In this document: positions 21,234 to 45,422 of the stretch, piece after piece
Numbering within the stretch: position 1 is the stretch's first letter
How the letters are laid out: each line of letters opens with the position of its first letter
DNA from: a candidate division TM6 bacterium GW2011_GWF2_28_16
GTDB lineage: Bacteria > Babelota > Babeliae > Babelales > UASB340
Direction of reading: 5' to 3'
Assembly (NCBI GenBank): GCA_000989185.1
Contig: LBNX01000005.1
Location: 11,926 to 75,925 of the forward strand
DNA: 64,000 nucleotides
Position numbers and translations under genes: made by a program
The notes under the pieces: model-generated
The model's input: only the letters and a program-made list of their open reading frames with translations
Told to the model about the DNA's origin: nothing
The model's database searches: none

Positions 21234-21257
21234 AAATAAGAAAAATAAAGGGTGCAT

Positions 21258-24200
21258 ATGATTATAATTAAAAAAAAATATTATTTTTTATTATTTCTTA
21301 TTATTTTAGTTAATAAATTATATCCAGAACAAAATTTTGATGTTCAAACAGCATATACATTAACATTACCACCTTTTGGAAAATTTGAAGTTACAGGAAC
21401 TGTAGATATTCCAAATGTTAATTTTACACTTGCTGGAAGCAAAAATAAAATATTTAATCTCGGTTTTTTAGAAATAGAAAATCCAACCATATCCATTTCT
21501 AATAAAAAAGGGCTTGGTGCAAGCGCCAAAGTTAATATTTTAGACAAATCTGCAACACTTTCGATGATAGAATTTATTCCAAATAAAATAGTTTCTTATA
21601 AAATTAAACCAGAAAATTTAATTAATATTGCTATAACACCATGGAACAATATAGACATAAATTATTTTATATTTTCTATAACAAACAATTTTTATGAATT
21701 AACTTCAGATGTTTCTATATTTGGGCACGATGCCAAATTTATATTTGCAAAAAAAAGACCTCCGGTAAAAATAGACGGCACTGAACAAGAAATTATAAAA
21801 AACCCAATAAAAGAACCTGCAAAAAATATTATCGAAGTTAAAACTTTAGATGAAATAAAACAAGATTTAGATAGTTATGCCCAAATTACCTTAAATAGCT
21901 TAACGCCTGCAGATCTTATAGAAAGTGCAAAAAACACAGATATAAATCTTATATCACTTCAAGATTCAACTTTTCTTATAACAGATCCATTTAATAAATT
22001 GGCAAAACATAATATAAAAATTTTTTGTACTGCCAATTTTGAAAAACTTAAGCTACCAAAAGCTTTTAATTTATCAAAACTAGACGCTCAAATAGATTTA
22101 AACCAAGAAGGTTTTGTTTTAACAACACAGCTTAAAGATACAAATATATTAGAAAATATTAATCTAGAAGAAATTACTCTAAAAGTTATTGTCCCCAAAA
22201 GACAAACAAAAACAATAACCCCTAACCAACAAGCCCAACCAACCCAACAACCTGTAAATAAACCCTCTATCTTTTTATCTGGTATAGCTAATCTAGATTT
22301 ACCATTAATTGGTAAACTTAAAACACAATTTAATGCTATTTACGATAAAAATAAATTTAATTTTTATTTAGATATAAATAAAGAAATTAATTTAGAAAAT
22401 ATTGCTAGCCTTCAAAATTGTTCTTTAAATTTTTCTAGTGATGGCAATATAGAAATTGTTGGTCAAACAAAAATATTAGATTTAAATTTAATTGGTAAAC
22501 TCAAACTAAGTAAAACAGCCCCTGCCAAACCAGCCCAAACACAACAAACAATTATAACTCCAGAGACTTCTTCTAGCGCCCAAGCTACATCAGAACCAAA
22601 TCTTGTTGCGCAAGAACCGCAAACATATACAAAATTTGGCAATTATTATATAGAATTTTCAGCCCAAGGTTTAGGCACAGTAAAACCTTTTGAAAAAATT
22701 TCTGGTGTTAATAATATTAAACAGATTAGAGACATTTCAATAACAGATCCAGCAGTAACAATTGGTTCAGACAAGCTAATCAAGTTTTCTGGTCTAACAG
22801 ATATTCTTAATTTTAAATCTAATTCAACAATAGAAATAAAAAGCACAAAAGAAATAACATTAAAATGTCAGGCTCCAGAAAATTGGCGAATTTCTGATGC
22901 AATAACAACTTTACAAGGTTCTTTTTTTGACGAACTGGATCTTTCTAATATAAAAATAATTATTTCAAGTTATACACATTTTGATCCCAATTTAAAAATT
23001 ATTATTAATAATGGTTTTAACATGCTTGCTGGCACGCAACTTACTGGTGGCGTTTTTAATAGTGCAAAAGTTTTAATGGGAGATATTAAAAAACAACTTA
23101 CAGTAGCAGGATCTTTTGGAGATTCTCCTACAGATACTTATTTGGCAATAGCAATACCTGTACCAGAAATTAAACTTTCTGAAAAAGCGCTTTTACAAAA
23201 TATAAGCTTTGTACTTGTGGGCAAAGGCCCAGCTATGGGATTTAAAACTAGAATATTAATTCGACCAAGTGAACAAGATAGTGAATTAATATTTACAGGT
23301 GAAATTGCCATACAAACAACCCCTCCAAGTGGCGTACTAAAAGCAACTATGCAAGGAGAGTGGGAAAACCCACTAGGTATTAAAGGCATTTCACTTTCAG
23401 ATTTAGCAGCACAAATAGCTATTACACTTACTCCTCCAACACCAACACCAAGTACAATAGGGTTAACAGGATTATTAAAATTAAGTAAAAATAAAAAAAT
23501 ATTTGTTGCAACAAATTATTCTATAGATGGCCAAATAGTTTTAATGGGCGAATACGATGGCGATATATTGCTAGAAGATATTTTAGCTATACCAGCAAAA
23601 TTAAACCCAAACATAAATATTAAAAAACTTAAAAATAAAGTTCCCGATATGGGTTTTCGAGATACGTTGTTCAAATTTGCACCATTACCTACAAAAATTG
23701 GTGAAATAGAATTTGATCAAGGTATATCACTTGCTGGCAAATTATTCTTTTTGGATAAAGAGGCGTTTATAAATCTTAATTTAAATAGCGATGGCTTAAT
23801 AGCTCAAGGCTATATTCCAGAATTTAATATTGGACCAATAAAAATTTCTGGTACAGGCTTAGATGGAATTTATGGCACCAAGGACGATGGCGCAACTCTA
23901 GATTTAATGCTCACGCCAGAAGATCAACATTTATTAATTTCTGGGCTTGCTGATATTTTAATAGCAAAAGGCCAAACAGATATTTTAATAAATAAAAATA
24001 AAGTAAATATGTTTTTACTAGGTCAATTATTTAAAGTCTTCGAAACAAAATTTGAAATTGAATCTGTAGGTTCTTTAAAAGAACTAGATAAATTAGATTT
24101 AATTTTTAAAGCAACGTTAAATAACGATTTAAATGATTTTTTAATTAAAAACATAATTAAATATTTAAATATATTTGATTCTAGTGTTAAAAACACAATT

Positions 24201-24350
24201 ACAGAAAACATACAAAAGCTTGATAATATAGATTCAAAAATAGATTCACTTGATATTCAGATAAAAGAAAAAAAAGCCAAAATAAAAGAATATGAAAAAG
24301 AATATGAAAAAATAAAAACGGCTAAAAAAAATTATAAAGGTCTAATATGA
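21258..24350 (+). CDS. large exported beta-rich protein (about 1030 aa), unknown function
   Basis: N-terminal hydrophobic anchor (YYFLLFLIILVNKLY). Pro/Gln/Thr linkers (TPNQQAQPTQQPVNKP; APAKPAQTQQTIITPETSSSAQATSEP). Recurrent [IL]-x-G-x-hydrophobic beta-like segments and a C-terminal coiled coil. ATG at 21258 is preferred over the GTG at 21252 (aaggg RBS spacing). Confidence 0.7.
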   Translation: MIIIKKKYYFLLFLIILVNKLYPEQNFDVQTAYTLTLPPFGKFEVTGTVDIPNVNFTLAGSKNKIFNLGFLEIENPTISISNKKGLGASAKVNILDKSATLSMIEFIPNKIVSYKIKPENLINIAITPWNNIDINYFIFSITNNFYELTSDVSIFGHDAKFIFAKKRPPVKIDGTEQEIIKNPIKEPAKNIIEVKTLDEIKQDLDSYAQITLNSLTPADLIESAKNTDINLISLQDSTFLITDPFNKLAKHNIKIFCTANFEKLKLPKAFNLSKLDAQIDLNQEGFVLTTQLKDTNILENINLEEITLKVIVPKRQTKTITPNQQAQPTQQPVNKPSIFLSGIANLDLPLIGKLKTQFNAIYDKNKFNFYLDINKEINLENIASLQNCSLNFSSDGNIEIVGQTKILDLNLIGKLKLSKTAPAKPAQTQQTIITPETSSSAQATSEPNLVAQEPQTYTKFGNYYIEFSAQGLGTVKPFEKISGVNNIKQIRDISITDPAVTIGSDKLIKFSGLTDILNFKSNSTIEIKSTKEITLKCQAPENWRISDAITTLQGSFFDELDLSNIKIIISSYTHFDPNLKIIINNGFNMLAGTQLTGGVFNSAKVLMGDIKKQLTVAGSFGDSPTDTYLAIAIPVPEIKLSEKALLQNISFVLVGKGPAMGFKTRILIRPSEQDSELIFTGEIAIQTTPPSGVLKATMQGEWENPLGIKGISLSDLAAQIAITLTPPTPTPSTIGLTGLLKLSKNKKIFVATNYSIDGQIVLMGEYDGDILLEDILAIPAKLNPNINIKKLKNKVPDMGFRDTLFKFAPLPTKIGEIEFDQGISLAGKLFFLDKEAFINLNLNSDGLIAQGYIPEFNIGPIKISGTGLDGIYGTKDDGATLDLMLTPEDQHLLISGLADILIAKGQTDILINKNKVNMFLLGQLFKVFETKFEIESVGSLKELDKLDLIFKATLNNDLNDFLIKNIIKYLNIFDSSVKNTITENIQKLDNIDSKIDSLDIQIKEKKAKIKEYEKEYEKIKTAKKNYKGLI

Positions 24351-25621
24351 AAAAAATAATAATATTATTATTTTATTTTATTTTTATCTCACACCTATAT
24401 GCCGGCAAAGGAAAAATAGTTTTTGAAAATAAATACAAACAAAGAATTTTAATAAAAATAGAAACTACTAATAATAAAAAATATAAAAAAATAATAAGCC
24501 CAAAAGATAAATGGGAATTAAAGTTATCGAGCAAAGTAGGTAGTCCAGATATAAAAGACATGTGGGTACAATTTCCAAAAAATGATCTTTTTGTTGTTGA
24601 TAAACACAAAATGAAAGGTTCTACACTCGATCACAGAAAATGGACGCGCAATATAAATGTAAAAAACAATCAAACAAGTACTGTAAAAATTTTTTATAAC
24701 GAAGATATAAACAGGTTTGAACGTGAAGTTTGGCGCAACAATAAAAAACAAGAAGATAGATTTAAACATTTAGGCAATATAACAAAAACAGAAATTATGT
24801 TTAAAAATATATCACCATACACAATTACACTACGTATTATGCTCACAGGATCTCTAAAATGGACCAATATAGAACTAGAACCAAACAGCATATACTTTTT
24901 ACAGCCAGGAACAAAAAATAATATAACCAAAAATTTAGATCACATGGTACTAGAATTTGCAAAACTTAAAGAATTAGAAAAAAATAATATTACATCAGAA
25001 AAACGCTGGTGGCCAAATACAATAAGAAATCAAAAAAATGAAAGTACAATAGTTTATATCGATTTTGACAAAATCTCCGGCAAATTTATACGATATGCAA
25101 TACGAAAAGGTATAATTAAAGAATCACTTAAAACAAATAAAGGCATAAGATTTAGCGAAAGTTATTTAAAATTACCTACCAGGCCAAAAACCAGAATGGT
25201 AAATATTGAAACTGAAATAGCAAAATTATACGGTAATATAGCATTGCTAGAAACCGAAAAAACATCACAACAGGCATTAAAAGCTTCAACAAAATGGGTT
25301 TTAGACAAAACCATGTTTGCAGCACTTGGGCTTAGCAATATGGCCCAAAAGGCAGCAACTGGAGCATTAAGTTTAATAAATATAAAAAATGCAGAACTTT
25401 CCGGAACAATTAAAGACCTTTTTTCGGGCAATATGCCACGGTTGTTAATAGATTGCGAAATTGCAGGCAAAGACAAAACATTTGACTTACAGTTTAACTT
25501 TAAACAACCAGACAATTTAGATACAATATCCAAAGAAATTAGTACTCAGACAGATAGTACACTAAAAGAACCAATACAAGATATTGAGCCGGGAGCAGAT
25601 ATAGAAACTGCAGAAGCATAA
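24347..25621 (+). CDS. secreted protein (424 aa), translationally coupled to the upstream large protein
   Basis: ATGA start/stop overlap with the upstream gene. Signal peptide MKKIIILLFYFIFISHLYA. Two beta-module-like segments (GKIVFENKYKQRILIKIE; TEIMFKNISPYTITLRIML) and an Ala/Leu-rich C-terminal region. Confidence 0.7.
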   Translation: MKKIIILLFYFIFISHLYAGKGKIVFENKYKQRILIKIETTNNKKYKKIISPKDKWELKLSSKVGSPDIKDMWVQFPKNDLFVVDKHKMKGSTLDHRKWTRNINVKNNQTSTVKIFYNEDINRFEREVWRNNKKQEDRFKHLGNITKTEIMFKNISPYTITLRIMLTGSLKWTNIELEPNSIYFLQPGTKNNITKNLDHMVLEFAKLKELEKNNITSEKRWWPNTIRNQKNESTIVYIDFDKISGKFIRYAIRKGIIKESLKTNKGIRFSESYLKLPTRPKTRMVNIETEIAKLYGNIALLETEKTSQQALKASTKWVLDKTMFAALGLSNMAQKAATGALSLINIKNAELSGTIKDLFSGNMPRLLIDCEIAGKDKTFDLQFNFKQPDNLDTISKEISTQTDSTLKEPIQDIEPGADIETAEA

Positions 25622-31054: not shown

Positions 31055-32215
31055 TCAAAATTTTAGATCACTCCAGGCAACAATATTAGAAATAGATCTG
31101 GTTTGCGATTCATTGCCAGCATAAACCAAATAACTATTTTTAGGGTCGATTTTTGTAAGCTCACACCAAGATTGTAAATTATCAAAAAAAGAACTATTAA
31201 TAGTTTTGCCGGCTTTTATCTCTATTGGAATCAATTTTTGGCCTTTTTCTATTAGACAATCAATTTCATTGCCAGCACTATCTCGCCAAAAATAAATATT
31301 AGGCACTTTATCTCTGTTATAAAAAGATTTTATAATTTCAGAAATAACAAAAGATTCAAAAATATTACCCCTACTACTGTGGCCCATAAGATGTTCTTCG
31401 TCTTCAACGCCCAATAAATGACATAAAAGTCCAGAATCATAAAAATATAATTTGGGCGATTTTATAAGCCTTTTACTAAAATTTTTATAATATGGCTGTA
31501 ATAAAAACAAAATATAACACTGTTCTAATATAGAAAGCCAAGATTTGGCAGTTTTTACATCTATCCCACAATCATTACTTAAAGAACTTAAATTTAAAAC
31601 TTGCCCTACCCGCCCTGCGCATAATTTTAAAAAATGCTGAAAAGTCGTTACATCACCAATATTTTTTAAAGATCTAACATCTCTTTCTATATACGTTTTG
31701 ACATAACTTGGATACCATTTTTCTGCTGTTACTTTTTTATCTGCAATTTTAGGATAAGAACCAGATATTAAAATAGACTCTACATTTTTAGGCAAAATTT
31801 TATTTCTCTTAAACTCTTTAATAGATAATGGCAAAAGAGTCATTATTGCTACTCTACCAGCCAAAGATTGAGATATAGATTCATTTAATAAAAAATTTTG
31901 GGATCCTGTAATAATTATTTCACCCTGCTTTTTGCTTTTATCAACATAAGTTTTTATATAAGACAAAAGATCTGGCGCAAACTGTATTTCATCTAAAATA
32001 ATGCCATATTTATTTATTTTTTTTTCCAAAAATAATCTAGGATCTTCGTGTGCAAATTTTCGCTGGTCTAAGTCTTCTAACGAAACATAATTATATTTTT
32101 TAAAGCAATATTGCGCCAATGTCGTTTTACCAGATTGCCTAGGTCCCAAAATGGCAATAACTGGAAACATTTTTGCAGACAATTTTATCTCTTTTTCTAA
32201 ATCTCTTTTTAACAT
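31055..32215 (-). CDS. AAA+ ATPase of the COG1373 type (AAA_14 + DUF4143 architecture)
   Basis: Walker A GPRQSGKTTLA, Walker B-like GIILDEIQ. The C-terminal region (YFWRDSAGNEIDCLIE...IPIEIKAG) is typical of the DUF4143 restriction-endonuclease-like end of this family. Confidence 0.8.
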   Translation of the reverse strand: MLKRDLEKEIKLSAKMFPVIAILGPRQSGKTTLAQYCFKKYNYVSLEDLDQRKFAHEDPRLFLEKKINKYGIILDEIQFAPDLLSYIKTYVDKSKKQGEIIITGSQNFLLNESISQSLAGRVAIMTLLPLSIKEFKRNKILPKNVESILISGSYPKIADKKVTAEKWYPSYVKTYIERDVRSLKNIGDVTTFQHFLKLCAGRVGQVLNLSSLSNDCGIDVKTAKSWLSILEQCYILFLLQPYYKNFSKRLIKSPKLYFYDSGLLCHLLGVEDEEHLMGHSSRGNIFESFVISEIIKSFYNRDKVPNIYFWRDSAGNEIDCLIEKGQKLIPIEIKAGKTINSSFFDNLQSWCELTKIDPKNSYLVYAGNESQTRSISNIVAWSDLKF

Positions 32216-35136: not shown

Positions 35137-36234
35137 ATGAATATACTAATTATAAGAGTTTCGGCAATTGGAGATGTTGTACATACACTGCCGGCAATAT
35201 TTTTAATAAAACATTTAATACCGGAATCAAAAATAGATTGGGTTGTCCAAAAAAAAGCTTCCCAACTTTTAACTAATCAAAAATTTTTAAATCAAGTTTT
35301 TGTATTACCAGACAATTATTTATCTATAAAAAACTTAACTAAAACTATACAAATAATTAAAAATATAAAACAAAATAATTACGATTTAATTCTAGACTTT
35401 CAGGGGCTTTTTAAAACAGCTGTTTTATTATATTTTTTAAATGGTAAAAAATATGGTTTTGATAAAAATAATACACGCGACAAATTTTCTTGTTATTTTA
35501 CAGACAAAAAAATAACGCCTAATTACAAAAATATAATAGAAAAAAACTTGTCTCTAGTTACAAATAGCTTATTTAATCTAAAAAAAATTACTTTTTGCCC
35601 TGTAATTAATCATTTAAAAAATAATTTTAATTTAAGTATACAAGAACAAGATCAAAATATAATTAATAGCTGGCTAAATAAAGATAATATAAAAAATTTT
35701 GTATTATTATCCCCCAATACAACATGGGAATCTAAACATTGGCCAGAAGATAGTTGGATAAAATTAATAAAAATATTAAATTTAAATAATAATTTTATTA
35801 ATAATTATAAAATAATTTTACTGGGCAAAAATTTTGGCGAAAGTGCAAAAAATATAGCTAATTATTTTAATAATAATAGTAATAATAATATTGTAATTGC
35901 CCCAGATTTTAATTTATTACAGTTAGCTTACTTAATTAAAAAAAGTAAATTACTTATTGCTCCAGATACAGGGCTTTTACACTTAGCAGATTTTTTACAA
36001 AAAAATAGTATAGGTATTTTTGGTCCAACAAAAGCTTTTAAACACGGACCATATTTACACGAATTTAATATAAAAAACGTAGAACAAATAGAATGCCCAC
36101 ACGATTATCAAAAGTCGCACAATAATACTAAAATAAAAATTAATATAAAAAATAGTAGTAATATACTAAACTGTATGTATAAACTATCTCCAGAATATTT
36201 AGCAAAAAAAATTTTTAAAATTATAGGGGAATAA
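35137..36234 (+). CDS. glycosyltransferase family 9 (LPS heptosyltransferase family)
   Basis: N-terminus ILIIRVSAIGDVVHTLPAIFLIK and C-terminal LLIAPDTGLLHLADFL are the two hallmark GT9 motifs. Confidence 0.8.
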   Translation: MNILIIRVSAIGDVVHTLPAIFLIKHLIPESKIDWVVQKKASQLLTNQKFLNQVFVLPDNYLSIKNLTKTIQIIKNIKQNNYDLILDFQGLFKTAVLLYFLNGKKYGFDKNNTRDKFSCYFTDKKITPNYKNIIEKNLSLVTNSLFNLKKITFCPVINHLKNNFNLSIQEQDQNIINSWLNKDNIKNFVLLSPNTTWESKHWPEDSWIKLIKILNLNNNFINNYKIILLGKNFGESAKNIANYFNNNSNNNIVIAPDFNLLQLAYLIKKSKLLIAPDTGLLHLADFLQKNSIGIFGPTKAFKHGPYLHEFNIKNVEQIECPHDYQKSHNNTKIKINIKNSSNILNCMYKLSPEYLAKKIFKIIGE

Positions 36235-36251
36235 TTTTACAGGGAAAAATC

Positions 36252-37496
36252 ATGAAAAATAAATTTTTAGTAATATTTATATTTTTTTTAATAAATTTAA
36301 TAAATATAAATAATAAATTAAATTCACAGACTCTTGATATACAAGAGGCCGTAAATTTAGCGTACAAAAACAATCCAAGTTTAAAAGCTTTAAAATTTGC
36401 AATTTCTGCTAGCCAGGCAGGAGAAAAAGTTGCTATTTCTGGTTATTTACCACAAATAACTTTAAATAGTAATGAACAATTTGCATCAAGCACCAAAGGG
36501 CCACAAAATAGTACTACAATTAATGCTAGCCAGCTTATTTATAGCTTTTCTGGGCCAGAACGCTTGAAAAGAATTGCCAAAACAGAAACAGAGATGGCAA
36601 AATTAAATGAAAAAAACAGTCAAGATTTAATAAGAAAAGATGTAGAAATATCTTTTTTACAAACCTGGCTATTACAAGAAAAACAAAAAACAATTAAAAG
36701 TTTAGAAGTTGCGGCACAACAAACTATTAAAAAATCAGAAAATCAAGATAGAGTAAATTTATTGGGCCAAAATGACGTTTTAATAGCAAGTGCAAATTAT
36801 GCAAGCCAAATGTATAACGTTTATGCATATATAGACGAACTTTCTATTTCGCAAGATCAACTTGAATATTTGCTTGGTAATTCTTATAAAACAGATAATA
36901 ACAGCCCAGAGCTTGTTTGGGATTTTAATAAAAATACAACAGTAAACCCACTTGATAATTACTATAATTTGGCTTTAAAAAACAGAAAAGAATTAAAATT
37001 AAAAGATCAAGAAATTGCTGAATACGAAGAATATCAAAAATATTATAAGTATAATTATTTACCAGAATTTAGTTTAACGGGTCAAGCAAGTCGTGCTAGC
37101 CAAACTATCGCAAATAATATTGGCATAAACTTGAGCTGGAATTTATTTGATGGTGCATCAAATTATTATCAATCACAGCAATATAACGCAAATAAGTTAA
37201 AAGCATTACAAGAAAAAGAAAGCTTATTCCAACAAGTAAAATATGATGTTCAAAAAGCTTATCATGAACTTATGGCTTACATAAAACAATTAACAGCCAA
37301 AGACGCTGCCTACAAACAAGCAGATAATGAATATAATTTAGCAAAATTAAATTATAAAATTGGGCTTATATCAAAAGTAGATTTAGATAATTCAATGTAT
37401 AATTTCGAAAACGCACACTTTGCATGGCTGACTGCTAAAATTAATGTAGCTATAAAAGAAAGTGAATTAAATTTTGCCTGCGGATATCCAAAATAA
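36252..37496 (+). CDS. TolC-like outer membrane efflux protein
   Basis: Signal peptide. Tandem OEP repeats with typical starts (LDIQEAVNLAYKNNPSLKAL; NYYNLALKNRKELKLKD). 414 aa. Confidence 0.85.
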   Translation: MKNKFLVIFIFFLINLININNKLNSQTLDIQEAVNLAYKNNPSLKALKFAISASQAGEKVAISGYLPQITLNSNEQFASSTKGPQNSTTINASQLIYSFSGPERLKRIAKTETEMAKLNEKNSQDLIRKDVEISFLQTWLLQEKQKTIKSLEVAAQQTIKKSENQDRVNLLGQNDVLIASANYASQMYNVYAYIDELSISQDQLEYLLGNSYKTDNNSPELVWDFNKNTTVNPLDNYYNLALKNRKELKLKDQEIAEYEEYQKYYKYNYLPEFSLTGQASRASQTIANNIGINLSWNLFDGASNYYQSQQYNANKLKALQEKESLFQQVKYDVQKAYHELMAYIKQLTAKDAAYKQADNEYNLAKLNYKIGLISKVDLDNSMYNFENAHFAWLTAKINVAIKESELNFACGYPK

Positions 37497-37518
37497 ATTA
37501 ATTAAAATTAGGAGAGTA

Positions 37519-38721
37519 ATGAAATTTAAAAAAATTATTATATTTTTATTAATAATATTTTTTTTATTAAGCTCAAGTTATTTTATTTATAAACAATATT
37601 TTAAAGTATCTCCTGAATTACCATATAAAACAACAAATATAGAAAAACGCGATATATCACAAATTATAAATAGTTCAGGAACTCTAGAAATAAAAGATAC
37701 TTTAAAAATTGGCTCTCTAGTTGCTGGTACAGTAAAACAAATACTAGTCAAAGAAAATGATATTGTTAAAAAAGGCCAAATACTTGCAATAATAGATAAT
37801 GGCAAAGATGATACCGAAGTTCAAGCTGCTCTTGGCCAAGTAAAAAATACACAAGCTCAACTTGATTATCAAGAAAAATATTTTGCACGCCAACAAGAGT
37901 TATTTAAAGCAAATCAAATATCACAAGATTATTTCGAACAAGTTACAAAAGATCTAGAACAATTAAAAGCTAATTTAATAACAAATAAAGCAACACTTAA
38001 AAAGGCTGAAATAGAATATAAAAATACAAGAATAATAGCGCCTGAAGATGGCATAATTATAGCTATATTAGTAACAGAAGGCGAAGCCGTAACTGTAGAT
38101 TTAGACGCAACAGTTTTGTTTAAATTAGCTAAAGATCTTACAAAAATGGAAGCTCAATTAAATATAGACGAAAGTGATATTGGTCAAATAAAAAAAAATC
38201 AAAAAGTAAATTTTACAGTTTCTGCTTATCCAGATAAAAATTTTGAAGGATTTATAACAGACGTAAGTTTTGCACCAAAAATTATTAATAATATATTATC
38301 TTATAAAGCTAGCCTGTGTGTTGAAAATCAAAATATGTTACTACGCCCAGGAATGACAGTTAATGCTGATATAAAAATAGCAAAAAGCAAAAACTGCCTG
38401 GCCATAACAACTCAAGCTTTTCAGATAAATAATAAATTAATAGAAACAGTTGCAAAAAATTTACACCATAAAATAGAATTCGCTAGTAAAAATTCAATTA
38501 AAACACTAGAAGCTAAATGCCAACAGCAAGATGCTGTTAAAAATATTTGGCTTATAAAAGATAATAAATTTATAGAAACCCCAATAATAATTGGTATAAC
38601 GGATGACACTTATTACGAAATAAAATCTGGTATTACAGAACAAGACAAAATTATTATAGATATAGAAGAAACTGATGAACTTAAAAAGATTTATTCTAAA
38701 ATTTATGATAGTGCTGTATAA
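37519..38721 (+). CDS. periplasmic adaptor (membrane fusion protein, HlyD/MacA type), copy 1
   Basis: ATG at 37519 with an aggagag RBS. N-terminal TM, lipoyl-like motif (GTVKQILVKENDIVKKGQILAIID), coiled-coil hairpin and beta-barrel (IIAPEDGIIIAILV). Confidence 0.85.
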   Translation: MKFKKIIIFLLIIFFLLSSSYFIYKQYFKVSPELPYKTTNIEKRDISQIINSSGTLEIKDTLKIGSLVAGTVKQILVKENDIVKKGQILAIIDNGKDDTEVQAALGQVKNTQAQLDYQEKYFARQQELFKANQISQDYFEQVTKDLEQLKANLITNKATLKKAEIEYKNTRIIAPEDGIIIAILVTEGEAVTVDLDATVLFKLAKDLTKMEAQLNIDESDIGQIKKNQKVNFTVSAYPDKNFEGFITDVSFAPKIINNILSYKASLCVENQNMLLRPGMTVNADIKIAKSKNCLAITTQAFQINNKLIETVAKNLHHKIEFASKNSIKTLEAKCQQQDAVKNIWLIKDNKFIETPIIIGITDDTYYEIKSGITEQDKIIIDIEETDELKKIYSKIYDSAV

Positions 38722-38758
38722 GCTATATTTATAAATTATTAAAAAACTTTTTACAATT

Positions 38759-38785
38759 TTGTCATCCTGAATTTATTTCAGGATC
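38759..38785 (+). repeat. palindromic element copy 2 (ttgtcatCctgaa tttat ttcagGatc), intercistronic hairpin
   Basis: 8-bp stem atcctgaa (38764-38771) / ttcaggat (38777-38784). The flanks are identical to the copy at 25950-26009, and the single stem difference is compensated (C-G versus G-C). Confidence 0.5.
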
Positions 38786-38796
38786 CAGGAATATTT

Positions 38797-40026
38797 ATGA
38801 ATATAAAAACTTTAACAAAAATTTCTATTAAATCACTTATGCGTCACAAATGGCGATCAGCGCTAACTATTTTGGGAATAATTGTAGGCATAGCTGCTAT
38901 TATTGCAACACTCGCTATTGGTTATGGAGCCGAAGCAAAATTACGCAAAAAAATACTCGCAATGGGTAAAAATTTTATTTTTATATTTTCAGGCAATGTT
39001 GCACAAGAAGGCAAAACTAATTTAAAACAAAAAGCCCGACCTAATTTTTTGACTAAAAAAGATGTCGATATTTTTAAAAAACAATGCCCACAAATAGATA
39101 AAATTAGCTCTGTAATGTTTTCACGCGATATAGTTAGTTTTAAAAAAAATAATATTCATTCGGATATAAAAGGTGGCAACCCAGATCTTTTAGAAATTAT
39201 AGATAGAAAAATTATTAAGGGTAATTTTTATTCCCAATTACAATATTTAAAAAGCAGTAAAGTTATTGTACTAGGTTTTAAAGCTGCAAAAGAACTTTTT
39301 GGTTTATCAAACCCAATTGGACAACCTGTACAAATTAAAAATATAACTTTTAAAGTAATTGGCGTTATAGATGAAATAAAATATTACGAAGGCTTTGAAG
39401 ATCCTAATTTTGATATTTATATGCCACAAACAACCATAGAAAAACAATTATTACATGACACTAGTCAAAATGTTCATGTAATAGTAATTACAGCAAAAGA
39501 TAAAGCTCAAATGCCATCTATAGTAAGAATTGTTAAAAGAATTTTAAGATTTAGACACAGATTAAAGGACAAAGATCCTGATGATTTTTCTATTATAGAT
39601 CAACAAGAAATGGTCAAAGCAGCAAAAGAATCTTCTAATATTTTAAATTTATTATTATTAATTATTGCTGCAATATCTCTTTTTGTTGGCGGTATAGGTG
39701 TTATGAATATTATGCTAGTTTCTGTGTCAGAAAGAACTCAAGAAATTGGTATTCGCATGGCAATAGGTGCAACAACAAAAAATATACTGTCACAATTTTT
39801 AATAGAAACTATAACACTATGTACACTAGGTGGCATAATGGGCATTATTTTGGGAATTATAACCCCATACATAATCGCACATTTTACAGACTGGCTAGTT
39901 ATACACAAACTTTCTTCGATAATATTATCTTTTACAATTACAACTATTATTGGACTAATTTTTGGATATTATCCAGCAAAAAAAGCTTCTAAATTAAATA
40001 TTGTTGATGCTTTAGTTAATGAATAA
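38797..40026 (+). CDS. MacB/FtsX-type ABC transporter permease, copy 1 (no adjacent ATPase)
   Basis: N-terminal TM (WRSALTILGIIVGIAAIIA), periplasmic MacB_PCD region and C-terminal FtsX domain (GGIGVMNIMLVSVSERTQEIGIRMAIGA). Confidence 0.9.
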   Translation: MNIKTLTKISIKSLMRHKWRSALTILGIIVGIAAIIATLAIGYGAEAKLRKKILAMGKNFIFIFSGNVAQEGKTNLKQKARPNFLTKKDVDIFKKQCPQIDKISSVMFSRDIVSFKKNNIHSDIKGGNPDLLEIIDRKIIKGNFYSQLQYLKSSKVIVLGFKAAKELFGLSNPIGQPVQIKNITFKVIGVIDEIKYYEGFEDPNFDIYMPQTTIEKQLLHDTSQNVHVIVITAKDKAQMPSIVRIVKRILRFRHRLKDKDPDDFSIIDQQEMVKAAKESSNILNLLLLIIAAISLFVGGIGVMNIMLVSVSERTQEIGIRMAIGATTKNILSQFLIETITLCTLGGIMGIILGIITPYIIAHFTDWLVIHKLSSIILSFTITTIIGLIFGYYPAKKASKLNIVDALVNE

Positions 40027-40030
40027 AAAA

Positions 40031-40058
40031 AGCCCATGAGATTAATACTCACGGGCTT
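40031..40058. terminator. hairpin terminator between convergent genes
   Basis: agcccatgag / ctcacgggct arms (one mismatch) with an A-run before and a T-rich tract after. Confidence 0.55.
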
Positions 40059-40078
40059 AAAATATTTTATTTTAAAAC

Positions 40079-41143
40079 TTATAAATCAGCTCTGCACATA
40101 GGGCAAATTTTTTTTTCATTAAACCATAAATCCAAGCATTTTTTATGAAATATATGCCCACATTTTGTTACTGAAATATCATTCTTTTTTAAATCTTTTA
40201 AATCAATTTCAAAAAGTTTTTCTGAACAAATAGAACATTCTTCTTTTAATAAATCATTAAATTGCTCATTCAATGATTTATTAAAACTTTCAAATTCAAA
40301 ATCATTTTGTTTAATTTTAAATTTTAAAACATATGCAACAATATCCCAAAAATATACCTTCGTAATATTATTATTTCCAGATAATATAATTGCGTATGAT
40401 CTATAAACAGGTTTTCTAAATTTATAAAGATCATATTTATCTATATTATCATTTATTTCTTTATTTCTTTTTAATATTTTTTTTACTGCTTTATATGCAA
40501 TAGTTTCAAAATTACCTTCATTCAAAACTAAACTTGATTTACTTTTTTTATTATATTTTTCATCAAAAATTTCAAGGTTTTCTAATGAATAATTATTCTC
40601 CAAAGATTTAGCAAATTTTTCAAATACTTTAACATGTTTTGCATTTTTAGAATTAAGATTATCTTTTAACTCAATTTTTCGAAGAGTGTAATTACTATTT
40701 AAAGCTTTTGCAATACGACTAATAGTTTTCAAATCTAAAGCATCAGAATTAAATGCTATGTGTTGAATAGTAGAATTTTTTTCTAAAAAATTATTAACTA
40801 TTTCAATGTTACTTAAAGAAAAAGACATATTATTAAAACATAGTTTTGATATAGTTATATTTTTATCAAAAACAGTTAACAACTTTCCAAAGTCCTTATC
40901 ATTTATTTTGAGCTTTCCAAAACAAAGCTCTTTTAAATAACTATTTTGTTTTAAAGCATCAATAAATTCATCTAGCTTACTGCCACTAAGTTCTAAATCT
41001 TTCAATTTAATGCTCTCTAATTTTTTATCATTTTTCAGTAGGCGATTTATAACTGCATTTAATCTAATTTTATTTACTTTAGAATTATCAGCGTGCAAAT
41101 TAAACCCAAATAATAATAAAAGAATTAAAATAAATCTTCTCAT
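40079..41143 (-). CDS. secreted LRR protein with C-terminal RING-H2 zinc finger (candidate E3 ubiquitin ligase effector)
   Basis: ATG at 41143 (ggaga RBS 5 nt upstream). Signal peptide MRRFILILLLLFGFNLHA and RI-like LRRs. The C-terminus is CSIC-x21-CGHIFHKKCLDLW-x7-CPMCR, matching C-x2-C-x21-C-x-H-x2-H-x2-C-x10-C-x2-C. Confidence 0.85.
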   Translation of the reverse strand: MRRFILILLLLFGFNLHADNSKVNKIRLNAVINRLLKNDKKLESIKLKDLELSGSKLDEFIDALKQNSYLKELCFGKLKINDKDFGKLLTVFDKNITISKLCFNNMSFSLSNIEIVNNFLEKNSTIQHIAFNSDALDLKTISRIAKALNSNYTLRKIELKDNLNSKNAKHVKVFEKFAKSLENNYSLENLEIFDEKYNKKSKSSLVLNEGNFETIAYKAVKKILKRNKEINDNIDKYDLYKFRKPVYRSYAIILSGNNNITKVYFWDIVAYVLKFKIKQNDFEFESFNKSLNEQFNDLLKEECSICSEKLFEIDLKDLKKNDISVTKCGHIFHKKCLDLWFNEKKICPMCRADL

Positions 41144-41256
41144 TATATCTCCAATAAAAATACCCAATTTAAAAAATATTTTATTTAAAAAGAGTTAGTG
41201 TTATTATAATACTCCTGTAAGGATACACTTTATATTATAAAATTAAGAAGAATATA

Positions 41257-42456
41257 ATGAAAAATCAAAAAATTTTATTAATAATAAGCACTCTTGTGTT
41301 TGCAACAAGCCTTAGTATTTATTTTTTTAAAAAAAAGAATACTACTAAAAAGCAACTCTTTGAAACTGTAAACCCAGAACGCAAAGATTTAATACAATAT
41401 ATAAATGCCTCCGGTACATTAAGAGCAAAAGAAGAAATAACTATAGGAAGTTTAGCTGCAGGAAGAGTTATCGAAATAAAAGCAGATGATAATGATTTTA
41501 TTAAAAAAGACCAAGTATTAGCAATTCTTGACGATGGCATAAATTATAGTGCAGTAAAAAAATTCACAGCATTTTTAGATGAAGCAAAAGCAAATTTAGC
41601 ATATTATAAAAATTATTATGCAAGGCAAACAGAATTATATAAAGCAAACCAAATATCTCAAGATCAATACGAAGAATATACAAAAAATCTAAAAGATTAC
41701 GAAGCTAAAGTAATACAAGCTGTTGGTGAGCTTGAAATGCGTCAGCAAGAATATGATAATTTATTTATAAAATCGCCAACCGATGGCGTTGTGATAGCCA
41801 AAGAAGTTGATTTAGGACAAATGATAACATCTAGATTTCAAGCAACTGTTTTATACAAAATAGCAAAAGACTTACATCACATGGAAGCAAATGTTGATGT
41901 TGACGAAGCTGATGTAGGGCTAGTTCAAGACGGGCAGGATGCAACTTTTACAGTTGATGCATTTCCAAAGAAAAAATTTCATGCAAAAGTACAACAAATT
42001 AGATACTTAGCAAAAATTGTAGATAACGTTGTTACATATGCAACTATATTAGATGTAAATAATCCAGATTTAAAATTAAGACCAGGTATGACAACAAATG
42101 TTGATATTAAAGTTCTTGAAGCAAAAAATGCTTTATGTGTACCAAATAAATGTTTAAGAATTAATAATATAATTCTTGAAACTACAGCAAAAGCTTTAGG
42201 ATATACTGTCAAAACATATTCTGAGACAGATAAAAAAAATGATCATGACCATATTTGGGTTTTAAGAAACAAAACATTTGAACAAATAAAAGTTGATGTT
42301 GGCGCAAAGTACGGAGCTTACACTCAAATAATTACTGACAATATCAAAGACACAGATCAGGTTTTAAGTTTTGTTGATGAAATAAATAAAGAAAATATCT
42401 TATTAAAAGGGCTATTTGCTCAACCTGGGACAATAGGAAATAATGGAAAGAAATAA
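41257..42456 (+). CDS. periplasmic adaptor (membrane fusion protein, HlyD/MacA type), copy 2
   Basis: Paralog of the 37519-38721 product (shared ...ARQ.ELYKANQISQDQYE..., IKSPTDGVVIAKEV, LRPGMTTNVDIKV). Confidence 0.85.
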   Translation: MKNQKILLIISTLVFATSLSIYFFKKKNTTKKQLFETVNPERKDLIQYINASGTLRAKEEITIGSLAAGRVIEIKADDNDFIKKDQVLAILDDGINYSAVKKFTAFLDEAKANLAYYKNYYARQTELYKANQISQDQYEEYTKNLKDYEAKVIQAVGELEMRQQEYDNLFIKSPTDGVVIAKEVDLGQMITSRFQATVLYKIAKDLHHMEANVDVDEADVGLVQDGQDATFTVDAFPKKKFHAKVQQIRYLAKIVDNVVTYATILDVNNPDLKLRPGMTTNVDIKVLEAKNALCVPNKCLRINNIILETTAKALGYTVKTYSETDKKNDHDHIWVLRNKTFEQIKVDVGAKYGAYTQIITDNIKDTDQVLSFVDEINKENILLKGLFAQPGTIGNNGKK

Positions 42457-42458
42457 AA

Positions 42459-43145
42459 GTGGTAATTTTAGAGGCTAAAGATTTAAAAAAAATATATAAA
42501 ATGGGTGAAACGGAAGTTGAGGCTTTAAAAGGTGTAAGCTTAACAATTAATAAAGGCGAATTTGTAGCCATTACAGGAACTTCTGGATCTGGCAAATCTA
42601 CATTAATGCATCTATTAGGCTGCCTAGATACTCCAACAAGTGGTGATTACTTTATTGATAACAAAAATGTTTCACACATGACAAAAGATGAATTAGCTAA
42701 AATACGAAATGAAAAAATCGGTTTTGTTTTTCAAAAATTCTTTTTACTTGCAGATTTAACTGCAACGGACAATGTTGCATTGCCATTATTATATGCAGGA
42801 AAAGCAGAACACGATGCAAAAATAAAAGCCCGGGAATATTTACAAGCTGTTGATCTGGGTGAAAGACTAGATCATTACCCTTATCAACTTTCTGGTGGTC
42901 AACAACAAAGAGTTGCTGTAGCACGCTCTTTAATTAATACCCCTAGTATAATATTAGCAGACGAGCCAACTGGTAATTTAGATACTCAAACTGGCGATAC
43001 TATTATGACTTTATTTTCTAAATTAAATAAAGAACAAAATGTAACAATTATAATTGTGACTCATGAATCGGAAATTGCAAATAAAACGAATAGAATTGTG
43101 CAATTACAAGATGGCAAAATTATTGCAGATAAAAAAATAAGGTAA
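42459..43145 (+). CDS. ABC transporter ATP-binding protein (MacB/LolD type)
   Basis: Walker A GTSGSGKST, signature LSGGQQQRVAVARSL, Walker B ILADEPTGNLD, H-loop VTHE. GTG start 2 nt after the upstream stop. Confidence 0.95.
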   Translation: MVILEAKDLKKIYKMGETEVEALKGVSLTINKGEFVAITGTSGSGKSTLMHLLGCLDTPTSGDYFIDNKNVSHMTKDELAKIRNEKIGFVFQKFFLLADLTATDNVALPLLYAGKAEHDAKIKAREYLQAVDLGERLDHYPYQLSGGQQQRVAVARSLINTPSIILADEPTGNLDTQTGDTIMTLFSKLNKEQNVTIIIVTHESEIANKTNRIVQLQDGKIIADKKIR

Positions 43146-43150
43146 AAACT

Positions 43151-44374
43151 GTGAATAGTTATCAACTTTTACAAACAGCTCTAAGAGCCTTAAATAAACA
43201 TAAATTAAGATCGTTATTAACAACACTTGGTATAATTGTAGGCGTTGTTTCGATTATTGCAGTTATGTCTATTGGTGAAGGTGCAAAATATAGAGTAAAA
43301 AAAGAAATAGAAGGCTTAGGTACGAACTTTATAATAGTTCTTGGTGGCACACCAAAACGATTAATGGCTCAACGTGGTGGCTCTGGTAATTTAACATTAA
43401 AAGAAAAAGATTATCAGGCAATTTTAAATGAATGCGAATATGTTGCTATGGCATCACCAGGTTTACAAAACAGTTTAAAAGCTGTTTACGAAGGTAAAAA
43501 CTGGCAATGTATGGTTGGAGGAGTAAACGAAAAATATTTAGAAATAAGAAAATGGGATTTAGTATCTGGAATATTTTTTGATAAACATGCAATAAAATCT
43601 GGAAAAAAAGTTGCTGTAATAGGTCAAACAATTAAAAAAGAATTATTTGGAACTGTTGATCCAATAGACAAAACAATAAGAATTAAAAAAGTTCCATTTA
43701 AAATTATAGGCATTCTTGGCGAACGTGGCAAAACTCCAGATGGTCGAGATGAAGATGATATAATTATGGTTCCTCTAAAAACCATGCAAAAAAAACTTAT
43801 GGGAATAAAAACACAAAAATATGGTGCCATAATAATTTCTGCAAAAGAAAAAGATAAAATGAATCAAACATCATCAGAAATAAAATCTATTTTAAGACAA
43901 CAGCATAACCTTGCAACAAATGAAGATGATGATTTTACAGTATTTACTCAAGATGATATTTCGCAAGCCTCTGATGCAGCATCTGCTGTTTTAAATTTAT
44001 TATTACTAGTAATTGCATCAATTTCGTTAATTGTTGGCGGTATTGGAATTATGAATATAATGCTTGTTACAGTAACAGAACGCACAAAAGAGATTGGAAT
44101 TCGTATGGCAATAGGTGCAACCACAAGTGCCATATTAAAACAATTTGTTCTTGAAGCTGTTATAATTTGTATGCTTGGAGGATTTTGTGGAATTATTGGT
44201 GGAATTACAATTGCAAAAATTGTAGGACATGCCTTAGGCTGGCCTATTTTTATATCTATTAAATCTATTTTAGTTTCGCTTGCTTCTTCTATAATAATTG
44301 GTTTATTTTTTGGATTTTATCCGGCAAAAAAAGCATCAAAATTAAATGTTGTAGAAGCTTTAATAGAGCAATAA
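43151..44374 (+). CDS. MacB/FtsX-type ABC transporter permease, copy 2
   Basis: Same architecture as the 38797-40026 product (GGIGIMNIMLVTVTERTKEIGIRMAIGA). GTG start with an aaggt RBS. Confidence 0.9.
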   Translation: MNSYQLLQTALRALNKHKLRSLLTTLGIIVGVVSIIAVMSIGEGAKYRVKKEIEGLGTNFIIVLGGTPKRLMAQRGGSGNLTLKEKDYQAILNECEYVAMASPGLQNSLKAVYEGKNWQCMVGGVNEKYLEIRKWDLVSGIFFDKHAIKSGKKVAVIGQTIKKELFGTVDPIDKTIRIKKVPFKIIGILGERGKTPDGRDEDDIIMVPLKTMQKKLMGIKTQKYGAIIISAKEKDKMNQTSSEIKSILRQQHNLATNEDDDFTVFTQDDISQASDAASAVLNLLLLVIASISLIVGGIGIMNIMLVTVTERTKEIGIRMAIGATTSAILKQFVLEAVIICMLGGFCGIIGGITIAKIVGHALGWPIFISIKSILVSLASSIIIGLFFGFYPAKKASKLNVVEALIEQ

Positions 44375-44382
44375 TTATTAAT

Positions 44383-44754
44383 TTAATCTTGAATAACAAC
44401 ACAATAATTAATACCTAACCTAGGGCAAAAACAAGACCATTCAAGCTCATGAATTAAAGTCCCTATACTTTTTGATTCATCAAAATCAAAATCATAATTA
44501 CCATTTTTTCGTGCATTAAAATGTAAATTTTTATTGTCACCAAAATTAATAATAAATTCGCCTATAGATATTTGAATTTTCTCTCCTGCAAGAAACTTTC
44601 TAGCATGAATTTGATTTTGACTATTATCGTCTTTTTGAAGAATTCTTGCATTTATTCCAGATTTATTTTTTATAAAAACACCTCCAGAATAAATTTTAAT
44701 ATTGCTCGATAAAATTAATAATAAAATTAATAAAACAAGTTTTTTCATTTGCAC
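44383..44754 (-). CDS. small secreted protein (123 aa)
   Basis: Signal peptide MQMKKLVLLILLLILSSNIKIYS followed by GGVFIKNKSGINARIL, a beta-module start shared with other secreted ORFs in the window. Confidence 0.55.
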   Translation of the reverse strand: MQMKKLVLLILLLILSSNIKIYSGGVFIKNKSGINARILQKDDNSQNQIHARKFLAGEKIQISIGEFIINFGDNKNLHFNARKNGNYDFDFDESKSIGTLIHELEWSCFCPRLGINYCVVIQD

Positions 44755-44759
44755 ACCCC

Positions 44760-45422
44760 TTAATTAAAATGCGTATGAAAAAATTTTTCTGTAAATACCT
44801 CTTGGCCGTTATATTCTATTTTATACTCATAAGATTCAGTGCTATCAGTAATATTTTTTATTGTACAAAAAAATCTATATATCCCAGGTTTTGATAAATA
44901 TTTATAAACATTGAGACTATCTAAACTTTTTAAAAGCATATTACCTATAAAACAATATACATCACCAGGTAACAATAAATGCTTCCCATTTAAATCTATT
45001 AACATTTGTTCATCTGAATCGTTTTTTAGAAAAATAAAAAAACTTTTTTTGGTTTTAATAGCATAATATATAGATTTTATATTTATGTCAGATAATCCAA
45101 ATCTTGAAATATTTTGGTCATTAGTTTGATATATAATTTTAAAAAATTCTGAATTATATAATATAAAGTCATCTTGCAAAAAACGAATTTCTCTCAATCT
45201 ATTTTTAATATCTAGATAAAAAAAACGAATCTTGCAAGTATTTTTAAAAGAAATTTCTTCGTTGGGCTTTAATTCTAAGCAAAATATTTCATTATCATAT
45301 TCGCAACTTAAAATAAAATTATTCTCAGTATTATTTGAAACTCCAGAATAAGCCTGAATATTATTAACAAAAATTAGGCAACTAACAATTATTATTTTTA
45401 TGTTATCCCAAAACCCCAACAT
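44760..45422 (-). CDS. secreted protein (220 aa), unknown function
   Basis: Hydrophobic N-terminus and a beta-rich, Cys-containing sequence. Lies 5 nt upstream of the next small secreted gene (probable operon). Confidence 0.55.
   Translation of the reverse strand: MLGFWDNIKIIIVSCLIFVNNIQAYSGVSNNTENNFILSCEYDNEIFCLELKPNEEISFKNTCKIRFFYLDIKNRLREIRFLQDDFILYNSEFFKIIYQTNDQNISRFGLSDINIKSIYYAIKTKKSFFIFLKNDSDEQMLIDLNGKHLLLPGDVYCFIGNMLLKSLDSLNVYKYLSKPGIYRFFCTIKNITDSTESYEYKIEYNGQEVFTEKFFHTHFN

Follow-up and report, generated by a model that had tools for sequence, protein, structure and literature searches.

The 64,000-nucleotide stretch of contig LBNX01000005.1 analysed here (the window; positions 11,926 to 75,925 of the forward strand) comes from the candidate division TM6 bacterium GW2011_GWF2_28_16. 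It carries genes for GyrA, trigger factor, SecD, SerRS, a heptosyltransferase and a TolC-like outer membrane efflux protein (OEP), and has a guanine plus cytosine (GC) content of 27%. GyrA is 86% identical to that of the metagenome-assembled genome (MAG) CSMAG_1558 and 63% to 66% identical to those of TM6/Dependentiae/Babeliales MAGs. Those members of the Dependentiae that have been cultured are obligate parasites, with amoebae and flagellates as their hosts (PMC4378268, PMC6561590). A string of genes on the plus strand (35137-44374) encodes the heptosyltransferase, the TolC-like OEP, MacA1, MacB1, MacA2, an ABC ATPase, and MacB2, with MacB1 present as a permease only, without an ATPase of its own. 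Between the two MacA/MacB modules of this string, and on the opposite strand, lies the gene discussed here, which encodes a 354-amino-acid protein (N-terminus MRRFILILLLLFGFNLHA) that we refer to as LRR-RING. Its predicted domain order is a Sec-type signal peptide, a leucine-rich repeat (LRR) domain of the ribonuclease-inhibitor (RNI)/tropomodulin-like kind, a helical linker, and a C-terminal RING-H2 finger (Table 1). A preliminary description, made from the sequence alone, had singled it out as a candidate secreted E3 ubiquitin ligase.

The RING-H2 finger is the best defined part of the protein. The last 52 codons read C303-x2-C306-x21-C328-x-H330-x2-H333-x2-C336-x10-C347-x2-C350-R351, which satisfies the eight-ligand definition C-x2-C-x(9-39)-C-x(1-3)-H-x(2-3)-H-x2-C-x(4-48)-C-x2-C, and residues 303 to 351 are the sole match to the RING pattern in a six-frame translation of the window. 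The open reading frame (ORF) and the ligand spacing are as the preliminary description gave them, with all eight ligands, the tryptophan and the CPxCR ending in place. The Pfam hidden Markov models (HMMs) for eukaryotic RING fingers bear out the domain call, scoring above their curated cut-offs for zf-rbx1 (PF12678; 41.2 bits against a cut-off of 31, E 1.9e-10), zf-RING_2 (PF13639; 39.6 bits against 27.3), zf-RING_5 (32.9 bits against 27.9), and zf-C3HC4 (28.0 bits against 21). A phmmer search of the sequences in the PDB retrieved RNF24, rice EL5, RNF38, RNF165/Ark2C, Arkadia, RNF4, HRD1, and RBX2 at E 2e-7 to 1e-5, active RING-H2 E3s being the best of these matches. Because the Pfam scores exceed curated cut-offs and phmmer finds solved RING-H2 domains, the pattern is not a chance match. 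A word-indexed protein search with the RING segment by itself returned zero matches.

The residues expected to contact an E2 enzyme are all present: I305 after Cys1, W340 in the helix, P348 after Cys7, and R351 in the linchpin position after Cys8, where we take the roles of these positions to be those known from established structures of RING domains with ubiquitin-charged E2 (E2~Ub), namely RNF4, BIRC7, and RNF38. The eight ligands and these four residues are identical in an alignment of all 3 family members. In a broader alignment of 88 RING-H2 sequences the ligands along with I305, P348, and R351 are invariant or at least 90% conserved, and W340 is absent from that list of conserved columns. 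An AlphaFold2 (AF2) model of residues 290 to 354, computed from an alignment of the protein with 87 short RING-H2 proteins that had been gathered with a mixed RING alignment seed, contains two short strands and one helix, with a predicted local distance difference test score (pLDDT) of 80.7 overall and of 84 to 92 in the core. The top 50 Foldseek matches of this model in the PDB are RING domains exclusively. The best of them is RNF165 bound to UbcH5b~Ub (root-mean-square deviation 0.8 Å, template modelling score 0.85-0.89), and the model also superposes on Arkadia, RNF38, and RNF12, several of these structures containing E2~Ub. Deviations from the eukaryotic RING-H2 domains (RNF165, Arkadia, RNF38, and others) range from 0.8 to 1.5 Å, and the predicted fold is the cross-brace beta-beta-alpha fold of a RING finger. 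The x21 loop between ligands 2 and 3 varies in length within the family (21 versus 16 residues) and is modelled at pLDDT 62. Judged by sequence and predicted structure, the C-terminal domain is a canonical eukaryote-type RING-H2.

Table 1. Features of the LRR-RING gene and its immediate surroundings (positions within the window)
Feature	Position	Strand	Description
LRR-RING gene	40079..41143	(-)	354-codon coding sequence 40082-41143 plus TAA stop 40079-40081; from the ORF list and the sequence
Best promoter-like site, weak	41234..41263	(-)	TTTTCA-18-TATAAT, 10/12 matches; in the 113-nt divergent intergenic region shared with macA2
Shine-Dalgarno GGAG	41149..41152	(-)	5 nt upstream of the ATG at 41143; read from the sequence
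Predicted Sec signal peptide (signal peptidase I)	41090..41143	(-)	Residues 1-18: MRR / FILILLLLFGF / NLHA, then DNSK
LRR domain	40544..41074	(-)	Residues ~24-200: N-terminal cap RLLKNDKKLESIKL and ~six 28-residue strand/helix repeats, RNI/tropomodulin type
Helical linker	40244..40543	(-)	Residues 201-300; most variable part; 9-residue indel relative to the orthologue
RING-H2 finger	40091..40237	(-)	Residues 303-351; from Pfam, AF2 model, Foldseek and family conservation
A9 run (T9 on the plus strand)	40108..40116	(-)	Inside codons N342-I346; not a functional element
Intrinsic-terminator hairpin	40030..40058	(-)	11-bp stem, 6 G-C pairs, T tail; 21 nt past the stop codon

The signals for translation and for termination of the gene are of the bacterial kind. 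The ATG is favoured as the start codon over an upstream TTG at 41167 because the Shine-Dalgarno sequence sits directly before the former. The terminator hairpin is located between the convergent macB1 and LRR-RING genes, and a scan of the region found 3 terminator-like sites against 0.2 expected. Promoter-like sites, of which the region has 15 versus 14.4 in shuffled sequences, showed no excess. The protein begins with recognisable n-, h-, and c-regions and lacks a lipobox cysteine; the most hydrophobic 10-residue segment (hydropathy 3.32) begins at residue 5. The predicted cleavage site was judged by inspection of the sequence, and the junction around it, FNLHA-[DE]-NSKV, is invariant although the orthologues are only 50% identical over the signal region. 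The cleavable-looking signal peptide of the preliminary description holds up as a prediction.

The same is true of the ribonuclease-inhibitor-type repeats that it had named. Over residues 24 to 160 the similarity is to tropomodulin/leiomodin, LRRC34, CARMIL, and RNI-type LRRs of consensus design, with E values from 2e-9 to 1e-5: phmmer found a Tmod1/Lmod1 chimera (E 2.4e-7), and the consensus RNI-LRR 4r5d led a profile search (E 1.8e-9), ahead of Tmod (3.3e-8) and then LRRC34 and CARMIL. A local Pfam-A scan of the LRR-RING protein at E<=1 listed no LRR family, neither LRR_6 nor PF27087, and PF27087 (LRR_TMOD-LMOD) is recorded at E<=1e-5 for its homologues P0001 and P0002. A full-length AF2 model, which was computed from a three-sequence alignment and used for the LRR fold class alone, has alternating strand and helix elements over residues 44 to 194 and a pLDDT of ~80-85 over residues 31 to 90, and its leading Foldseek matches are Tmod/Lmod LRRs. 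Tropomodulin/leiomodin, CARMIL, and LRRC34 are thus the best sequence and fold matches to residues 24 to 200, the N-terminal cap included, at an identity of ~18-23%. Since the designed consensus RNI-LRR scores equally well or better, the tropomodulin match is a class assignment only, and on this sequence evidence it defines the type of repeat and not an actin-binding function such as the pointed-end binding of the Tmod/Lmod ABS2 domain. Actin binding was not adopted for this reason, and the idea that a tropomodulin/CARMIL-like LRR directs the ligase to actin-filament ends or the capping machinery is a long shot. Between the LRR domain and the finger, the linker has no Pfam match, its helices are predicted at low confidence in the full-length model, and its identity to the orthologue is 52%.

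A likely source of the LRR module, a small expanded family of secreted LRR proteins, lies 10 kb away. Three tandem paralogues on the minus strand (50364-54040; 221, 537, and 420 amino acids) contain RNI-type LRR_6 repeats, have in common a signal-like N-terminus, MKNI(R/K)KI(F/L)LL, and possess an N-terminal cap similar to that of LRR-RING. The LRR-RING protein is 25% to 26% identical to them (E 1e-6 to 1e-9). Because both the repeat type and the similar cap recur in the three paralogues, the LRR module was probably derived from a resident family of secreted LRR proteins.

Several observations place the gene firmly in the bacterial genome. One relative (P0001, 98% amino acid identity) occupies the same position in a 1.9-kb JGI contig (L002) that is 99.4% identical at the nucleotide level, and another (P0002, 57-58% amino acid identity) the same position in a colinear 16-kb Logan contig (L001; 82.5% nucleotide identity), in which the location between the MacA/MacB modules is also kept. 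The GC content at third codon positions (GC3) is 0.118 versus 0.115 to 0.166 in the neighbouring genes, and the overall GC content is 21% versus 26% to 32%. Since GC3 matches the neighbours, the Shine-Dalgarno sequence and terminator are bacterial, and the same position is found in two other assemblies, the gene is native to this genome. The possibility of a frameshifted pseudogene, raised in the preliminary description, finds no support in these relatives: the gene is intact, and the ligands are conserved in both the 98% strain variant and the 57-58% orthologue. In a more distant relative (L083), MacA1, MacB1, MacA2, and the ATPase are adjacent with no intervening gene, from which we conclude that the LRR-RING gene was inserted in the recent ancestry of the lineage. 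The MacB1 synteny search behind this comparison was dominated by distant MacB homologues, and L083 alone was informative. No comparable locus was found in CSMAG_1558, the closest species genome by GyrA.

Relative to the L001 orthologue, LRR-RING is the most diverged of 16 syntenic genes, with 58% amino acid identity versus 69% to 89% and a nonsynonymous substitution rate (dN) of 0.287 versus 0.06 to 0.19 for the others. Its ratio of nonsynonymous to synonymous rates (dN/dS, or omega) is 0.385, against about 0.08 to 0.23 for most neighbours. The second fastest in the syntenic block is a 142-amino-acid ORF at 46953-47381 (69% identity, dN/dS 0.60). Among the parts of the protein the RING has the lowest omega, 0.12, followed by the LRR at 0.39, the linker at 0.56, and the signal region at 0.76, a pattern that fits a conserved, putatively catalytic module joined to a changing recognition module that would face the host. 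The near-identical strain (L002, 816-1880) differs from the window at 9 positions of the gene, 8 of them non-synonymous, and at only 2 in the remaining 828 nt that the contigs have in common; none of the substitutions alters a ligand or an E2-contact residue. Positive selection between these strains was considered and rejected, the 8 non-synonymous changes versus 1 synonymous change being consistent with neutrality.

A run of nine A residues between the Cys6 and Cys7 codons had been proposed as a site of slippage that would delete the last ligand pair. The run is where it was said to be, but it is no slippage device: A/T runs of at least 9 number 10 in the window versus 9.8 +/- 3.0 in shuffled sequences, as expected from composition, and the run is interrupted in both relatives, L002 (AAAAAAGA) and L001 (GAAAATAGA). 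It is a by-product of lysine codons in an AT-rich genome, and slippage or phase variation was rejected.

At full length the family is extremely narrow. A word-indexed search of 5.8 billion proteins returned the two relatives P0001 and P0002 only, and when 1.84 billion cluster representatives were searched exhaustively with HMMER, only the P0002 cluster was recovered at full length, the combination of signal peptide, LRR, and RING being otherwise absent among full-length relatives in that collection. The other matches among the 150 listed by HMMER were best in the LRR region, mostly in long multi-repeat proteins, or were confined to the RING; the two RING matches that were inspected, P0059 and P0086, are tandem RING arrays. 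The clusters to which the leading LRR matches belong carry almost no names. No family member was found in genome contigs, searched with both protein and alignment queries, or in metagenome contigs, and viral contigs contained RING-level matches in giant-virus contigs only and no family member. By these sequence searches the LRR-RING family is an orphan, with three sequences in a total of about 15 billion proteins. The closest RING in the viral collection is a 143-amino-acid protein with a hydrophobic segment and a RING-H2 (L081, IMG/VR 3300023178_002259, 4761-5192, plus strand), which is 48% identical over 63 residues; both sequences are AT-rich, and the likeness may be partly compositional.

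The RING-H2 finger itself has a much wider distribution in bacteria. A census in which the fixed-spacing DNA signature CxHxFHxxCxxxWx6CPxC was searched for in species-representative bacterial and archaeal genomes gave at least 120 loci, where by our own estimate ~0.03 would be expected by chance, and nearly all of the matches listed are ORFs with a full eight-ligand RING. Among these listed matches, which by their titles cluster in host-associated lineages, about 30 belong to Chlamydiae/Parachlamydiales/Simkaniaceae, about a dozen to Endozoicomonas/Kistimonas, and at least 8 to Babeliales/Dependentiae/TM6, to which L190 and L194 can be added from MAGs placed by GyrA and MacB; Cardinium and Fangia are represented as well. 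The usual form in Dependentiae is a signal-like N-terminus, followed by ankyrin repeats or nothing recognisable and then a RING-H2, confirmed by Pfam in five proteins (L258, L200, L253, L212, and L170). Neither these Dependentiae proteins nor the chlamydial L174 described below share the N-terminal domain of LRR-RING, and none of the former matched a profile of its residues 19 to 300. The rarity of bacterial RING-H2 fingers that the preliminary description implied was thus overstated, given their recurrence in Dependentiae, Chlamydiae, and Endozoicomonas and the demonstrated activity of one bacterial RING E3 (PMC12591485). Eukaryote-type RING fingers in such bacteria have been in print since 2014-15 (PMC4209131, PMC4378268), and LRR-RING is a new, very narrow member of a recognised class, the eukaryote-type RING E3 effectors of bacteria that live with protists and animals. 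The census makes these a recurrent and barely studied effector class, in which a single instance is not very surprising.

Three further census proteins deserve mention. In a Dependentiae MAG, L257 (JAJCZC010000026.1) encodes 252 amino acids with a signal-like N-terminus and apparently three tandem RING-like Cys/His clusters. In a Chlamydiae MAG, L174 (JABDFI010000055.1; 537 amino acids) and L255 (JABDFI010000078.1; 747 amino acids) combine many FBXL-like LRR_6 repeats with a C-terminal RING-H2. By eye, the N-termini of this chlamydial pair (…IPSDIFGRILSFLP…) resemble an F-box, a likeness that Pfam failed to confirm at E<=1e-4; if the F-box is real, these proteins would combine an adaptor motif of Skp1-cullin-F-box (SCF) ligases with a RING of their own in one chain.

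Comparison with known systems shows where LRR-RING resembles them and where it departs. With eukaryotic RING-H2 E3s (RNF165/Ark2C, Arkadia, RNF38, RNF24, RNF12, EL5/ATL) it has in common the C3H2C3 pattern and spacing, the Trp after Cys6, and the CPxCR ending, which extends to CP-x-CRAD in RNF38. It differs from them in being bacterial, in the Sec signal and RNI/Tmod-like LRR placed in front of the finger, and in the longer loop (x21) between ligands 2 and 3. The RING-H2 proteins of other Dependentiae (the five above and L273) belong to the same phylum and also combine a signal-like N-terminus with a canonical RING-H2, which scores above Pfam cut-offs and is usually C-terminal behind a repeat-type module. 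Their partner is ankyrin or nothing recognisable rather than LRR, and sequence kinship is limited to the RING. For Babela massiliensis (TM6), a RING-finger protein, an F-box protein, and secreted deubiquitinases were described in 2015, with type II as the only secretion system (PMC4378268).

Chlamydial symbionts of amoebae have likewise fused LRRs to a RING-type E3 module, in L174 and L255 and in Neochlamydia NEX1b, which has an N-terminal RING/U-box and C-terminal LRRs (PMC4209131). The domain order of L174, with the LRR before a C-terminal RING-H2, is that of LRR-RING, while that of NEX1b is reversed. The chlamydial LRRs consist of 24- to 25-residue FBXL/AMN1-like repeats without a signal peptide, and their homology to LRR-RING is limited to the RING. 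Chlamydiae rely on type III secretion. In Simkania negevensis, SneRING (SNE_A12920) was shown in 2025 to work as a RING E3 with UbcH5b and with UBE2T; it is expressed in amoebae, and its authors describe knowledge of bacterial RING ligases as limited (PMC12591485). As a zinc-type RING of an intracellular bacterium it shows that bacterial RING fingers can be real E3s. By its published description its RING is N-terminal and unusual in its ligands, with His in the Zn1 site and NxxC for CxH, and it lacks the hydrophobic E2-contact residue; an alpha/beta domain of unknown function follows. A C-terminal canonical RING-H2, an LRR, and a signal peptide set LRR-RING apart.

The IpaH/SspH/SlrP effectors of the NEL type follow the same logic, with N-terminal LRR recognition and a C-terminal E3 in one secreted polypeptide (PMC12591485), and as an analogy the parallel with IpaH drawn in the preliminary description is a fair one. 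The NEL domain, which arose in bacteria, holds ubiquitin as a Cys~Ub thioester on the catalytic Cys of a CxD motif, and NEL effectors are exported by type III secretion, whereas a RING is a scaffold that activates E2~Ub without a covalent intermediate. No NEL family is among the Pfam matches of the LRR-RING protein, whose C-terminal domain is a RING. Nor does it belong to the U-box/NleG type, whose RING-like fold is zinc-free and held by salt bridges and hydrogen bonds: all eight Cys/His ligands are present, no U-box Pfam family is among the best 25 of 27 matches, and zf-RING_UBOX (26.2 bits) is an overlapping RING model.

The reading that we favour, with a probability of roughly 0.62, is that LRR-RING is a host-directed effector acting as a single-subunit RING-type E3 ubiquitin ligase. 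It agrees with the secreted LRR-RING E3 candidate of the preliminary description, an interpretation that sequence comparison and structural models support; each computational check suggested in that description turned out in its favour. The signal peptide, whose sequence features are plain and whose cleavage is predicted, would send the protein via Sec to the periplasm, from where it would leave the bacterial cell by a route that can be guessed from the phylum: type II secretion, as in Babela, or outer-membrane vesicles, as in Chromulinavorax. Signal peptides are found on 44% of the coding sequences of C. destructans and on 78% of its ankyrin proteins (PMC6561590), and type II substrates of Legionella reach the host cytosol (PMC5478897). 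In the cytosol of a protist host, the RING-H2 finger would bind two zinc ions and dock a charged E2~ubiquitin of the UbcH5/UBE2D type through Ile305, Trp340, and Pro348, with Arg351 as the linchpin that primes ubiquitin for discharge and direct transfer. The LRR solenoid, perhaps together with the linker, would bind a host protein and present its lysines. On this model, the LRR module came from the resident secreted LRR family, and the fusion gene was inserted between the MacAB modules in the recent ancestry of the lineage. An E2-directed role is suggested because the finger scores as a eukaryotic RING-H2 and its E2-contact residues are under strong constraint.

A number of points weigh against this reading. 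The chief physical difficulty is that a Sec-exported finger with six cysteines must cross the periplasm unfolded, avoid disulphides, and acquire zinc and fold later; the membrane of the host vacuole is an extra barrier for a Sec/type II substrate, and there are no type II secretion genes within the window. The Leu at -3 of the predicted cleavage site is permitted, though not ideal. The full-length AF2 model is poor (pLDDT 53.6, falling to 29-49 over residues ~140-260), and the better RING-only model was fed with a RING-H2 alignment and hence is not independent of the HMM evidence, its zinc sites not being explicit. At the finest evolutionary scale, 8 of 9 non-synonymous differences are compatible with neutrality (82% of sites are non-synonymous, P = 0.49), so that very recent constraint is not demonstrated.

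The other explanations divide according to what they make of the finger and of the signal peptide. The RING could bind host E2 or other ubiquitin-system proteins without catalysis, in which case the protein would be a decoy for E2 or an inhibitor of it, or else an LRR scaffold that uses its RING for interaction or dimerisation. Some RING domains are inactive alone, and the x21 loop is long, variable in length, and modelled at low confidence. We nevertheless consider this unlikely, given that the residues marking active monomeric RING-H2 E3s (I305, W340, P348, and R351) are all present and invariant, that the nearest structural matches are ligases of proven activity solved in complex with E2~Ub, and that the loop is within the canonical range of x9-39. 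We put a lower probability on an envelope-resident protein, either free in the periplasm or held in the inner membrane by its N-terminal helix if this is not cleaved, with a bacterial role, such as the binding of envelope proteins, or a MacAB-linked one in which ubiquitin has no part. A signal sequence predicts exit from the cytoplasm and nothing further, the gene keeps its place between the MacA/MacB modules in L001, and no secretion-system genes are within the window. Without an E2 partner, however, a eukaryotic RING-H2 match with constrained E2-contact residues (omega 0.12) would be difficult to account for; the gene is opposite in strand to the pump genes and has its own terminator; the adjacent pump modules of L083, which lack it, imply that the pumps function independently of LRR-RING; and its divergence is effector-like.

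An E3 of an endogenous bacterial ubiquitin-like (Ubl) conjugation or anti-phage system, of the Prok-RING, Bil, or CBASS-Cap2 kind, is very improbable. Prokaryotic RING-like families do exist, and Prok-RING_1 and Prok-RING_4 are among the Pfam matches, but they score 11.7 to 12.6 bits (E 0.13-0.25) against cut-offs of 27 to 29, which the eukaryotic RING-H2 models pass. The neighbouring genes encode MacA, MacB, ABC, TolC, and housekeeping functions, with no E1, E2, Ubl, or JAB genes among them, and LRR-RING carries an export signal. Membership of a defence system was rejected, no PADLOC defence model having matched. We give least credence of all to an artefact, in which eukaryotic or giant-virus DNA had been mis-assembled into a bacterial contig or the gene were a decaying pseudogene. 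Its RING does resemble giant-virus and eukaryotic RING-H2 domains, the small protein of a nucleocytoplasmic large DNA virus mentioned above among them, and its overall GC content is below that of its neighbours. Set against this, two assemblies made independently from other samples carry the gene at the same position (99.4% nucleotide identity over 1.9 kb and 82.5% over 16 kb), its GC3 equals that of its neighbours, it has a bacterial Shine-Dalgarno sequence and a rho-independent terminator, and its frame is intact with an overall dN/dS of 0.385.

The surroundings of the gene also suggest a more speculative route of export. Because it lies between two MacA/MacB modules and downstream of a TolC-like protein, in a position kept in the sister genome, and because Babela has type II secretion only, Sec-delivered periplasmic effectors such as LRR-RING might conceivably be expelled by pumps of the MacAB-TolC type. 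MacAB exports the small enterotoxin STII in Escherichia coli. We regard this idea as a long shot; if true, release by MacAB-TolC would be a new export route for protein effectors.

Dependentiae are widespread parasites of protists with hardly a member in culture, and no effector of theirs has yet been put to the test. As a compact candidate of 354 amino acids, LRR-RING would be a good experimental subject, although no surprise to specialists, and with its canonical RING-H2 it should be more amenable to assays than the atypical SneRING. It opens the questions of whether these bacteria mark host proteins with ubiquitin, which host proteins the fast-evolving LRR would pick out, and how a Sec-exported, cysteine-rich zinc finger would find its way to the host cytosol.

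Elsewhere in the window, 27 of the 56 ORFs of at least 120 amino acids have a strongly hydrophobic stretch in their first ~30 residues, a count that includes true membrane proteins as well as the LRR_6 and ankyrin proteins, and which agrees with the ~44% signal-peptide fraction published for Chromulinavorax. One of these, a 271-amino-acid ankyrin-repeat protein with a hydrophobic signal-like N-terminus (17670-18485, minus strand), has the build that is typical of Dependentiae effectors. Large ORFs of 1032, 424, and 478 amino acids at 21252-25621 and 13469-14905 (both plus strand) lack a Pfam match at E<=1e-5 and start with a signal-like N-terminus, and are possible lineage-specific secreted proteins. 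Four small ORFs (123-251 amino acids) at 44383-45422 (minus strand), 46181-46936 (plus strand), and 46953-47381 (minus strand) form a cluster and are without a Pfam match; their N-termini are signal-like and strongly hydrophobic in three cases and weaker in that of 46953-47381. An AAA_14 plus DUF4143 ATPase gene is located at 31055-32215 (minus strand), and an ATP-dependent DNA ligase of this small, AT-rich bacterial genome, at 54061-55884 (minus strand), has the three-domain N/adenylation/C architecture typical of archaea and eukaryotes.

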